From: a virus
DNA: 64,000 nt
Virus record (IMG/VR): IMGVR_UViG_3300034068_000286
Coordinates: 1-64,000 of that record
Direction: 5' to 3' (one strand)
The first letter of the stretch is position 1; every line of letters starts with the position of its first letter. Positions 2,620 through 7,139 of the stretch are shown here, in pieces. Made by a program: the position numbers and the translations under genes. The notes beneath the pieces were generated by a model. That model saw only the letters and a list, made by a program, of their open reading frames with translations. It made no database searches and was not told the origin of the DNA.

Positions 2620-2648
2620 ATTATAAATGAAAACAGCGGTTGTGTCAA
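2620..2648 (-). promoter_or_regulatory. sigma70 promoter for uvsE
   Basis: TTGACA-17 bp-TATAAT. Confidence 0.8.
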
Positions 2649-2661
2649 CCGCTGTATATAG

Positions 2662-2878
2662 TGCCACGAAGCAAGGGAAACGAAAACAGTCAAATATCAG
2701 CAATCAAACATCTGGTATCAAACATACGCTTTTTGCTCAGATATATCATCAAATATCATTTTAATAGTTTTATATCTGAGCAAAGCTAGTTGAGTTAGTT
2801 TTTCAAGACTAATTCAGGATTTGTTTATCGCATGAAGCGATACTGTATTTTCGCTTTTACCTTGGACCAAGTGTGGCA
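2662..2878 (-). ncRNA. Putative multi-branched structured RNA downstream of the coiled-coil gene
   Basis: Terminal TGCCAC/GTGGCA pairing; long closing stem 2672-2690 with 2842-2864; three internal hairpins; four ATRTTTGA repeats. Confidence 0.55.
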
Positions 2879-2881
2879 GTC

Positions 2882-3460
2882 TTAGTCTAGCCCAAGTTCA
2901 GTTAGCACAAGTGCTACCTGTTCGGGTACTTCAATATCTGTGCGGACGTTGATACTGACCATTTCGTCCTTAATCTTGCGTCGACGTCGTCGAATTGCTT
3001 CCAGTTCTTTTTTGGCTTCTGCAATGGCCTCTGCTGGCACAACGTTGACGTCCAAGCTGTAGTCACGACCGTAAATGCTTACCCGTTCGTTGTTGCTATT
3101 GGCCTTGCGGCTTTCAATTTCTGCTGCCAAGGCATCCAAGTTGGGACGAACAGCAGATTCGCTGTAGGCTTTTAACCTAGACTCAGCACTGGCCAACATG
3201 GCTTCTTCAGCCAGGTAATCAGTGATGCCTACTTCGGCATTTTTCTTGGCTACCACACCACGTAGGAACTTGTTTGCGTTAAGCAAACGACCAGCCTGAG
3301 CATGATTTGCTTTTACCTTGGCCAGCTGTTCTTCTAACTGGGCATGTACATTTGTTTCAAACAAGCTGATTTTTGCTGTTGTTTCTTCTGTGCCCAAACG
3401 CTTGATTTCATCAGTGATTGTTTGCTGGACCACACTGGCCTTGCGTAAATTGATTTTCAT
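2882..3460 (-). CDS. Hypothetical coiled-coil protein
   Basis: 192-aa helical ORF with AGGA SD and its own sigma70 promoter. Confidence 0.75.
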   Translation of the reverse strand: MKINLRKASVVQQTITDEIKRLGTEETTAKISLFETNVHAQLEEQLAKVKANHAQAGRLLNANKFLRGVVAKKNAEVGITDYLAEEAMLASAESRLKAYSESAVRPNLDALAAEIESRKANSNNERVSIYGRDYSLDVNVVPAEAIAEAKKELEAIRRRRRKIKDEMVSINVRTDIEVPEQVALVLTELGLD

Positions 3461-3491: not shown

Positions 3492-3520
3492 AGTATAGCA
3501 AAAGACACGGTCATTGTCAA
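3492..3520 (-). promoter_or_regulatory. sigma70 promoter
   Basis: TTGACA-17 bp-TATACT. Confidence 0.75.
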
Positions 3521-3536
3521 GACTTATTTGTCCAGA

Positions 3537-4352
3537 TTATGCAGGTGGAGGAATTAGTGCAAGCAAAGCGGCAATATCGTATTCATCTGCCAGTGCTATC
3601 CATCCGCCATCGGTATACACTTTAATTTTGCCAGGTGGTCCAGAGCTTATTGGATTCTTTTCAACTGTATTAAAGTACATGGTACCAACTTCACTTGTTG
3701 TTGGATCAGTTGCATAACACGGAAGTTTTGGTAAGCCTGTTACCACTTCTTTTGTTTCGTGTAGATGAACAAGAATATTACCATTCAATGGTACGGAGTC
3801 GCGGTCGTCAAAATTTCTAATTGGATCTATGTATAGACCTTTTTTTGCCGCTGTGATTTCAGAGTCACTTGTACTAATAACAATACTAGATCCCACTTGC
3901 CCATTGGCACCAGCTCGGTTTCCAATTGCGATAGAGTTCGCACCTTGTGCAGTTTGACCTGCCGTTTCACCAATGGCAATAGCACCAGCACCTTGTGCAG
4001 TTTGACCTGCATTTTCACCAATGGCAATGGCCAGCGTGGATTGCGTACTTTTCCCTGCACTGGTACCAACAGCAATGGCTTTTGCACCCTGTGATGTTCT
4101 ACCAGCTTGGTCACCAATGGCAATGGCAAATGTAGACTGTGCAGATTGCCCAGCTGATACTCCAATACAAATAGCATTAAGTGCTTGTGTTTCTTCTCCA
4201 GCACGGTCGCCAATGGCAATGGCCCATTGTGCCTGCGCTGAATAGCCAGCCTTGCGCCCTACAGATACTGTATTCTCAGTATTGCTTTCTTCTCCAGCGT
4301 ATCGTCCGATTGTTACGGAGTCTAGGTTATGTCTACGTCTTCTTCTGTACAT
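3537..4352 (-). CDS. YadA-head-like repeat protein (trimeric adhesin / fibre)
   Basis: About ten 14-aa repeats of AIAIG-x-x-AG-x-x-x-Q-x. Confidence 0.8.
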   Translation of the reverse strand: MYRRRRRHNLDSVTIGRYAGEESNTENTVSVGRKAGYSAQAQWAIAIGDRAGEETQALNAICIGVSAGQSAQSTFAIAIGDQAGRTSQGAKAIAVGTSAGKSTQSTLAIAIGENAGQTAQGAGAIAIGETAGQTAQGANSIAIGNRAGANGQVGSSIVISTSDSEITAAKKGLYIDPIRNFDDRDSVPLNGNILVHLHETKEVVTGLPKLPCYATDPTTSEVGTMYFNTVEKNPISSGPPGKIKVYTDGGWIALADEYDIAALLALIPPPA

Positions 4353-6146: not shown

Positions 6147-7139
6147 TTAAAAGGCACCACCATCGAGTTCAGCTATATCAATTGCTGTAGTAATTTCAGT
6201 ACTAATCTCTGTTCTTGCTGTGACAATGGCCGCACTGATTGCATCTTCTACATAATCTAGTGTTGCAAAGCCCTGCCCTGCAACAACGTCAGTAATTTGA
6301 TTGTCAACATAACCCTTCGTTGCCGCATGGCTATCACTTGTAGGGTCAGCTGGTAGTGTAAGTGTACCAGTTGTATTGAGTGTAACTTCAAAGCTACCAT
6401 TGGCCAATCTGTTGGTGGGCTGTGCTGAAATTATATCAAGTACACGCTGTTCTGTAAAGTACAGGTTGGTACCCTCGGCCAAATCAGAAGTTGTTTTAGT
6501 AGCCAATGCCGCATCAAAGCGAGCCTGTGTCCAATACAAGTTATCACCTTCGGCTAATGCAGTTGTTGTCTTGGCAGCAAATGCCGAATCAAATCTGGCT
6601 TGTGTGTAGTATAAATTGCTACCTTCAGTTGTGTCCGATGTTGACTTAGAACCCAATGCCGCATCAAAGCGAGCCTGTGTCCAATATAAGTTACTGCCTT
6701 CAGCTACATCTGAAGTTGTTTTGGCGGCCAATGCTGAGTCAAATCTAGCTTGTGTATAATACAGGTTAGTGTCTTCGGCTACATCTGAAGTTGTCTTGCT
6801 AGTTAGTGCGGTATCGAAGTAAGAGTTAAAATCGTTTGATGCTAATTTAGTACCAATCAGTGCTGTAATAGTTGTGGCAAAGTTTTCGTCATTGTCTAAT
6901 GCCGCTGCCAATTCGTTCAATGTATCCAACAGCGCAGGAGCACCATCAACCACTGCATCAACATAGGCCTTGCTGGCCAAGTTGCCAATTGCCACAATTG
7001 ATTCAGTTAGATTCTGTCCAGTAATTTTTTGTGTGATGCGGTCATTTACTAATACAAATTCATCAAGGCTATCAAATTGAACTGTCTCATCTAGTTCTGA
7101 TATTTTGGCAAACATTTTGCCCTGGAAAAAATTACTCAT
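6147..7139 (-). CDS. Virion fibre/structural protein with 25-aa repeats
   Basis: Five KTTSDxAEGxNLY(Y/W)TQARFDxAL repeats; LDTLNELAAAL and HAATKGYVD tail-fibre motifs. Confidence 0.8.
   Translation of the reverse strand: MSNFFQGKMFAKISELDETVQFDSLDEFVLVNDRITQKITGQNLTESIVAIGNLASKAYVDAVVDGAPALLDTLNELAAALDNDENFATTITALIGTKLASNDFNSYFDTALTSKTTSDVAEDTNLYYTQARFDSALAAKTTSDVAEGSNLYWTQARFDAALGSKSTSDTTEGSNLYYTQARFDSAFAAKTTTALAEGDNLYWTQARFDAALATKTTSDLAEGTNLYFTEQRVLDIISAQPTNRLANGSFEVTLNTTGTLTLPADPTSDSHAATKGYVDNQITDVVAGQGFATLDYVEDAISAAIVTARTEISTEITTAIDIAELDGGAF

Follow-up and report, generated by a model that had tools for sequence, protein, structure and literature searches.

On the minus strand of the DNA analysed here (the window: 64,000 nt, positions 1 to 64,000 of IMG/VR virus record IMGVR_UViG_3300034068_000286), which carries all the genes in this part of the window, a gap of 284 nt separates an open reading frame (ORF) for a 192-aa protein (2882-3460) from a UvdE-type endonuclease gene (1584-2597, with its real start at the ATG at 2597). 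The question raised by this locus is what the gap encodes. The original prediction had placed in it a closed, multi-branched RNA with evenly spaced repeats, perhaps acting together with the adjacent protein. Our analysis confirmed that 2662-2887 (-) encodes a real, conserved structured RNA of ~225 nt; its closing pairs, its three hairpins and the motif copies near 2691, 2705, 2719 and 2749 all lie where they had been predicted, on the minus strand. The best explanation of the locus is a single transcription unit consisting of a promoter, the gene for the 192-aa helical, Arg-rich protein, the ~225-nt RNA and a terminator. From comparison with distant relatives, we conclude that the window holds, in swapped order (class A), a widespread and so far uncatalogued pairing of an RNA with a protein gene, and that both forms belong to one family.

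RNAfold on the minus strand of the gap gave z = -6.0 relative to shuffles. A conserved stretch of ~225 nt was present directly 3' of the stop codon in 28/28 IMG/VR loci that encode a 56-92% identical protein, while the gene downstream of it varied among these loci; the RNA is thus tied to the protein gene, as had been suspected, and not to what follows. RNAalifold on 19 distinct copies yielded 42 pairs, 25 of them with compensatory changes. After realignment by a covariance model (R1, which scores the window element at 232 bits) and the addition of the P4 hairpin and the stop-codon helix, 94.2% of 989 cells paired among 20 distinct homologues, and 32 of the 50 pairs changed on both sides. None of 500 shuffles reached any of the five measures used, and controls in which the partner was slid paired in only 32-43%. 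Furthermore, G-U cells occurred by the dozen (for example, columns 4/24, 38-41/223-226 and 117/175); the same cells would be C-A on the opposite strand, and the RNA is therefore made from the gene strand. Three checks had been proposed for the original prediction, namely whether homologues keep a downstream structure, whether it covaries and whether the region is transcribed. The structure is retained, the covariation is strong, and transcription is weakly indicated by RNA-library contigs over the element.

These lake metatranscriptome contigs (141-226 nt, from 4 runs) cover 2662-2893. One contig from each of two runs stops at 2662/2663, where the fold has its 3' end, and others end at 2889-2893, just upstream of its first helix (P0, below). 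The contigs are those of close relatives, and DNA carry-over in RNA libraries is possible. The protein-coding part is mostly without such contigs; this was not used as evidence, since missing contig cover proves nothing. Taken together, the contigs are a weak hint of a discrete RNA of ~230 nt.

The RNA was found as an obligatory neighbour of the protein gene. A metagenome scan recovered 29 further full-length copies, with the tail of the protein encoded upstream in 28 of them, and a pattern scan of IMG/VR found the RNA solely directly behind the protein gene (29 true matches). We discarded the 4 false IMG/VR matches, all AT-rich, and several metagenome matches, which represented AT-rich coding stretches or simple tandem arrays of 7-nt units. 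In one locus, L149 (1117-1346 (-)), a class A RNA without its first ~45 nt has no protein gene upstream; this low-coverage marine contig is likely an assembly chimera or a recombinant, and we rejected it as evidence that the RNA is independent of the protein. Two coding readings of the gap were also rejected. A read-through or extension ORF past the stop would be broken in any frame, since relatives have 1-2 nt indels immediately behind the stop codon, and the AUG of a mini-ORF spanning the repeats (AUG-UUU-GAU...UGA) is AUA in several relatives. Separately, many class A relatives (L001, L005-L008, L011-L019, L021 etc.) carry a small hydrophobic ORF (MKKxWRxWAKALGEKAG...RHW, or MNSLEKIWARATGHLMG...) 5-12 nt after GUGGCAC. 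It starts near the end of the RNA fold, has no visible Shine-Dalgarno sequence and is absent from the window.

As in the original prediction, the RNA could not be matched to a known family. The whole window gave no match to Rfam 15 at the gathering threshold, and at E <= 10 nothing credible appeared, the best sub-threshold match being to a eukaryotic miRNA model (24 bits against a threshold of 84 bits). No match was obtained by blastn of the region against cultured phages.

The class A RNA abuts the protein stop codon in all class A loci, and its fold is anchored on that codon (all strands below are on the minus strand). The last codon, the stop codon and the following G (GACUAAG, 2881-2887) form the 5' strand of helix 1 (P0), which pairs 7/7 with CUUGGUC at 2865-2871. 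P0 contains the last codon and the stop codon; the fold therefore begins inside the ORF, and not right after the stop codon as had been proposed, and a terminating ribosome must therefore open P0 and the pseudoknot described next. P0 was fully paired in 42/43 distinct elements and occurred in four pair types. A UGA stop codon is accompanied by a compensating change of the partner strand to CUCAGUC, and GAUUGAG is paired with CUCAAUC. Inside the P0 loop, GCCAC (2873-2877) pairs with GUGGC at the 3' end of the fold (2663-2667), with the compensatory variants GGCCGC/GCGGCC and UGAC/GUCA. The ends of the RNA do pair, as had been predicted; the simple closed multiloop was not borne out, and on these covarying strands P0 and the GCCAC/GUGGC pairing are a predicted pseudoknot.

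Two long-range helices follow inside the pseudoknot. P2 (helix 3) joins CAAGG (2860-2864) to CCUUG (2672-2676), with compensatory changes in 4/5 pairs and 100% of cells paired. P3 (helix 4) joins AAGCGAAAAU (2847-2856) to GUUUUCGUUU (2678-2687), with 5/10 pairs compensatory and many G-U cells. They enclose the three hairpins that had been foreseen. P4 (helix 5; UAUCGC-UUCAU-GCGAUA, loop UUCAU) spans 2826-2842, and its 6/6 pairs are compensatory. P5 (2796-2811) has a covarying stem and a conserved loop, CUUGAAAA(A)C (CUUGAAAAAC in the window). P6 (2728-2786; helices 7 and 8) is a long hairpin with 12/16 pairs compensatory, and the 3' side of its loop has UGAUAUUUGAUG. This is far more structure than a terminator requires, in agreement with the earlier estimate; a distinct terminator-like hairpin lies beyond it, at 2633-2655. 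We also observed that GAAAAC in the P5 loop (2800-2806) has complements in the P3 3' strand (GUUUUC, 2681-2686) and in the invariant 5' GUUUUG of the class C RNAs described below, which may reflect tertiary or alternative pairing.

Between P6 and the 3' closing strands lies an unpaired tract of five 7-nt units, (A/C)URUUUG, at 2691-2725 (-), defined by its conservation in 20 relatives. The four ATRTTTGA copies of the original prediction were correct; the 14-nt spacing given for three of them is part of a 7-nt register over five units. In the window the units read AUGUUUG, AUACCAG, AUGUUUG, AUUGCUG and AUAUUUG. UG occupies positions 6-7 of units 1 to 5 in 20/20, 4/20, 19/20, 18/20 and 20/20 relatives, respectively; unit 2 usually ends in AG and has G at position 7 in 15/20. 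The P6 loop contributes a further UUG-AUGUUUG. In the window alone, where 4/5 units end in UG, the periodicity is modest (p about 0.02 relative to shuffles); its strength comes from conservation across relatives. In most of 45 RNAs from the whole family, 4-6 units are in phase and occupy a matching relative position, and the periodicity has p <= 0.01 in 12 of the RNAs. The four bases between the UUG triplets vary freely, which would fit a protein that reads triplets at intervals; it would not fit pairing with one fixed nucleic-acid target. As a side observation, long simple tandem arrays of TTTGATA or TTTGATG, whose unit is that of the RNA heptads but which lack the fold, occur in unrelated metagenome contigs (L176:6332-6461, L134:1465-1613, L179:1705-1905 and L130:666-800).

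The partner gene (2882-3460 (-)) encodes an all-helical 192-aa protein with the N-terminus MKINLRKA and an Arg-rich stretch, RRRRRKIK. The AF2 model is helical (pLDDT 76), and conserved Arg, Lys and Asn positions, the Arg-rich helix and the C-terminus are shared with homologues. There are 151 close homologues, and an exhaustive search found 439 clusters (50% identity) of ~190-aa proteins. Sequence searches of Pfam, PHROG, NCBIfam and the PDB returned no named or informative family, and the ESM Atlas returned unnamed viral clusters only. The top structural match by both methods was 3kdq (DIP1984-like, uncharacterised), and it was weak: Foldseek gave a probability of 0.95 with E = 0.024, and VIA gave Z = 10.6 over 135 residues, values below about 13 being commonplace among helical proteins. 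No sequence match links 3kdq to the protein. Toxicity had been suggested for the protein; the Pfam, PHROG and NCBIfam searches gave no match to a toxin family, nothing at the locus resembles a toxin-antitoxin pair, and the idea found no support.

The promoter expected for the protein and RNA was located at 3492-3520 (-) by consensus match (TTGACA, 17 nt, TATACT, with an upstream TG; 11/12 consensus positions). A sigma70-type promoter of the form TTGAC-N17-TATAAT was kept 35-40 nt upstream of the ATG in 17/17 class A relatives checked, and there is no room for a promoter between the stop codon and the class A RNA. The unit is closed by an intrinsic-terminator-like hairpin, separate from the RNA, at 2633-2655 (-), with 10 pairs (6 G-C) followed by the T run TTTCATTTAT. 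This hairpin is present in L020 and missing from most relatives. In addition, at 2620-2655 (-) the hairpin ACAGCGGTTGACACAACCGCTGT and its T run overlap a sigma70 promoter that matches 12/12 consensus positions (TTGACA, 17 nt, TATAAT) and would drive the UvdE endonuclease gene; L020 is arranged likewise.

More distant loci in IMG/VR (28-34% protein identity) lie in jumbo-phage contigs, within dense tRNA arrays. Most of these protein genes are preceded by a ~265-nt RNA (class C) that has a TATAAT promoter to itself and for which 40 pairs are predicted, 28 of them compensatory. A model of this RNA (R2) found exactly one copy, on the gene strand and within ~600 nt of the protein gene, in 51/55 distant loci. 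The copies are mostly upstream of the gene and lie downstream in L096, L097 and L115; the remaining four loci (L102, L103, L111 and L116) have heptad tracts downstream. In both class C and class A, long-range helices close around three hairpins; the loop of P4 is UUCAUG and that of P5 CUUGAAA, UUUG lies on the 3' side of the P6 loop, and a UUG tract with 7-nt spacing comes ahead of the 3' closing strands. The P4 hairpin of the class C RNA in L114 equals that of the window letter for letter. R2 also finds the window RNA in the right place and on the right strand (2735-2841 (-), 17.3 bits, E = 0.003), a weak match covering model positions 67-176 only, and R1 gives weak matches in the right place in L111, L106 and L104 (E = 0.016-0.39). 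Thus, the tie between RNA and protein gene holds across a wide family and in either order. The two classes differ in that the class C RNA precedes the gene and has its own promoter, whereas the class A RNA follows the gene and has none; class C begins with 5' GUUUUG and a hairpin, and class A instead has the hairpin of the last codon and stop codon, pseudoknotted with the 3' end. Several class C loci (L076, L063 and L096) have a separate promoter between the RNA and the protein gene.

Three further elements were seen around class C loci. At L108:2777-3004, the gene for an RpoZ homologue of 75 aa (PF01192, E = 1.8e-9) separates the class C RNA from the helical-protein gene, and rpoZ has the same position in L064, L067, L069, L079, L084, L085, L093, L107, L110 and L114; loci of class A and of the Caulobacter phages lack it. 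GOLLD RNA (RF02032, 198 and 182 bits) occurs at L096:1117-1581 and L116:2370-2829, in dense tRNA arrays around the helical-protein gene. A second, different conserved RNA-like element of ~230 nt (GACCCCGG ... GUCUAGGGC ... GCUAGACAC) lies at L063:3571-3800, directly 3' of the helical-protein gene and ahead of tRNA-Met genes, with no Rfam match at the gathering threshold; it was also found in L067, L069, L079, L084, L085, L096, L108, L110 and L114.

The family reaches cultured phages. In the Caulobacter phages CcrColossus (gp272) and CcrPW (gp279), an unannotated gap of 284-292 nt comes after the gene for a homologue of the protein. In CcrColossus, this gap (at 201299-201582 of JX100810) contains six UUG heptads, has z = -5.2 and gave 0 Rfam matches at E <= 1; the CcrPW gap is almost identical. 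Only more distant family members led to these two phages; with the class A protein as query, tblastn found no match among cultured phages. We found no published description of the class C or heptad RNA, nor any in the literature on CcrColossus noncoding RNA, jumbo-phage rpoZ, structured RNAs of huge phages or DIP1984; a catalogue of ~10,000 candidate short viral RNAs (PMC10690425) may hold fragments of this RNA. The window adds to the family an RNA placed behind its gene and a pseudoknot at the stop codon; it also served to show that class A and class C form a single family, and the RNA-library contigs on it are the first hints of expression.

The window itself comes from a different setting. 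The source record is an 86.5-kb fragment from an uncultured virus (CheckV completeness 26%), and relatives sit on contigs of 285-332 kb; the source virus is therefore a jumbo phage, uncultured and from fresh lake water. Unlike class C loci, the class A window has no rpoZ and no tRNA array near the pair: a tRNA/tmRNA scan of the window found none, and no rpoZ homologue was found in the 86.5-kb record. The adjacent genes 3537-4352 (-), with a weak match to PHROG 4636, and 6147-7139 (-) encode repeat-rich proteins resembling tail fibres or tail spikes; the protein-RNA unit therefore stands beside structural genes and not in a tRNA island.

We propose, with roughly even confidence, that the heptad tract of this stable RNA is the predicted binding site for several copies of the co-expressed helical protein, with which the RNA would form an RNA-protein particle. 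The processing, binding, stoichiometry, feedback and target that we infer are as follows. The RNA would be released from, or outlive, the mRNA; several protein copies would bind the evenly spaced UUG triplets, one heptad unit per site; and the folded, pseudoknotted core would serve as a nucleation, stabilising or protection module. In this architecture the stop-codon hairpin and the pseudoknot would clamp the RNA ends, with the three hairpins and the unpaired five-unit tract held inside, and the outcome would be a defined particle. In class A, folding or occupancy of the RNA may feed back on synthesis of the partner protein, because the ribosome must melt the stop-codon hairpin and the pseudoknot to finish that protein. 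The target is probably host RNA or translation, or a take-over of RNA polymerase, because the usual home of the pair is among tRNA, GOLLD and rpoZ genes. In its wider form, which we put forward tentatively, the pair could be a new class of phage ribonucleoprotein, with helical-protein copies on a 7-nt UUG ruler around a pseudoknotted RNA core, made early, in varied hosts (Caulobacter plus the unknown hosts of the lake phages), acting on host RNA polymerase, tRNA or the translation machinery, and in class A with protein synthesis coupled to RNA folding through the stop-codon pseudoknot. Several observations weigh against a particle. The conserved neighbourhood is also compatible with co-regulation without physical contact, and the next ORF begins 5-12 nt past the fold in many relatives, so that the RNA could stay in a polycistronic mRNA. 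The heptad signal is modest in single sequences (p 0.02-0.07 for many), and L024, L077, L091, L101, L074 and L090 have merely two or three in-phase units. On the protein side, the family searches revealed no recognisable RNA-binding domain, and the single structural neighbour, 3kdq, is of unknown function with a score within the chance range of helical bundles.

An alternative is an RNA that is a decoy or scaffold for another factor (a ring-shaped or multi-domain RNA-binding protein of the host such as Hfq, Rho, S1 or RNase E, or else RNA polymerase or another phage protein), with the helical protein only a co-regulated partner in the same pathway. Ring oligomers such as TRAP and HutP read short motifs that recur at even intervals in single-stranded RNA, the pair is usually housed in an island with rpoZ, tRNAs and GOLLD, and the helical protein is without a known RNA-binding domain. 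Yet that protein is the one gene kept beside the RNA across 28-98% identity and through order flips, while rpoZ is missing from class A and Caulobacter-phage loci; the motif itself, UUG with few C and lacking ARN and GGA, would not suit the known preferences of Rho, the Hfq distal face or CsrA. We therefore consider another factor unlikely. Slightly less probable still is a cis element, that is, a 3'-untranslated or leader module for mRNA stability, processing or autorepression with no trans function, the autorepression site being the stop-codon pseudoknot in class A and the leader in class C. The fusion of the class A fold to the stop codon with no promoter between them, the position of the class C RNA ahead of rpoZ and the protein gene, and a likeness to the phage T4 gene 32 leader all favour it. 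However, the same RNA is placed on either side of the gene, and a leader-type switch cannot work from both; these order flips therefore argue against a purely cis leader, as do the separate promoters between RNA and gene in class C, a size of ~225-290 nt with 50 conserved pairs that exceeds the needs of a stabiliser or operator and, weakly, the RNA-library contigs that match the RNA itself.

It is improbable that the RNA assembles into a multimer without a dedicated protein, its loops and U/G tract making RNA-RNA contacts. GOLLD and ROOL do form cage-like homo-oligomers, GOLLD shares the same tRNA-rich neighbourhoods, and the conserved loop CUUGAAAAC could pair with GUUUUC or GUUUUG in other parts of the RNA, a potential contact; but the RNA is far smaller than GOLLD and ROOL and has no Rfam similarity, and self-assembly leaves the strict link to a protein gene unexplained. 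We give almost no weight to the idea that there is no RNA at all, and that the gap holds a small ORF, palindromes that arose by chance or a feature of the DNA itself (protein-binding iterons, or one that serves replication or packaging). In its favour, each strand folds well in silico and the TTTGAC-like words resemble -35 boxes; the strand-specific G-U pairs and compensatory changes already contradict it, a spacing of 7 nt does not correspond to the helical repeat of DNA, a conserved ORF is ruled out by covariation together with indels of 1-2 nt, and RNA-library contigs cover the element. Across deep divergence and at least two gene orders, the helical protein remains the sole constant neighbour of the RNA, and a particle of the two is the reading we favour.

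The roles of the islands of tRNAs and orphan RNAs in giant phages are largely unknown. Here an orphan RNA gains a genetically linked protein partner, a simple predicted binding code (UUG every 7 nt) and cultured hosts, which make it a tractable system. A particle, if the two do form one, would represent a new mode of RNA-protein recognition and probably a new phage take-over device. Class A also provides a natural stop codon buried in a conserved pseudoknot, of relevance to translation termination and to the coupling of protein synthesis with RNA folding.

Several known systems were compared with the window RNA. Type III toxin-antitoxin RNAs (ToxI-like) are tandem repeats of ~34-45 nt upstream of an endoribonuclease toxin gene, whereas the window repeat is 7 nt long, lies inside a larger fold and is downstream of the gene. 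GOLLD (RF02032) and ROOL are likewise phage-borne orphan structured RNAs of tRNA-rich regions, and GOLLD lies <=1.5 kb from the partner gene in L096 and L116; they measure 400-800 nt against ~225 nt here and match neither in sequence nor in structure, and we know of no dedicated neighbouring protein for them. The CsrB/RsmZ sponges are multivalent noncoding RNAs with many short copies of a protein-binding motif, which the heptad tract resembles. Their motif is GGA, irregularly spaced in hairpin loops, whereas the window RNA presents UUUG in unpaired RNA; they lack a pseudoknotted core, their genes do not adjoin that of the binder, and they gave no Rfam match to the window RNA.

The leader of T4 gene 32 has a similar layout. 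It has a pseudoknot followed by unstructured, repeated short U/A motifs, to which the product of the adjacent gene binds cooperatively, and the window RNA likewise combines a predicted pseudoknot, unstructured repeats and an adjacent gene. It differs in being a much smaller element at the 5' end, read by gp32, an OB-fold protein that binds single-stranded DNA, whereas the window RNA is 3' of its gene; unlike that leader, the RNA described here is kept even when rpoZ and a promoter separate it from the gene. HutP and TRAP, which act on Bacillus leaders, read UAG every 7 nt and G/UAG every 5-6 nt, respectively, in unpaired RNA with free spacers. They are beta-rich ring proteins unrelated to the helical protein, and their RNAs are 5' leaders that switch a terminator and have no large folded core, whereas the window RNA is 3' of its gene and shows no terminator/antiterminator alternative, its terminator at 2633-2655 being separate and absent in most relatives. 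In the window RNA, UUG (or UAG) ends five successive 7-nt units in unpaired RNA, and the triplet-repeat logic of the HutP hut leader and the TRAP trp leader is the nearest known to its UUG every 7 nt.

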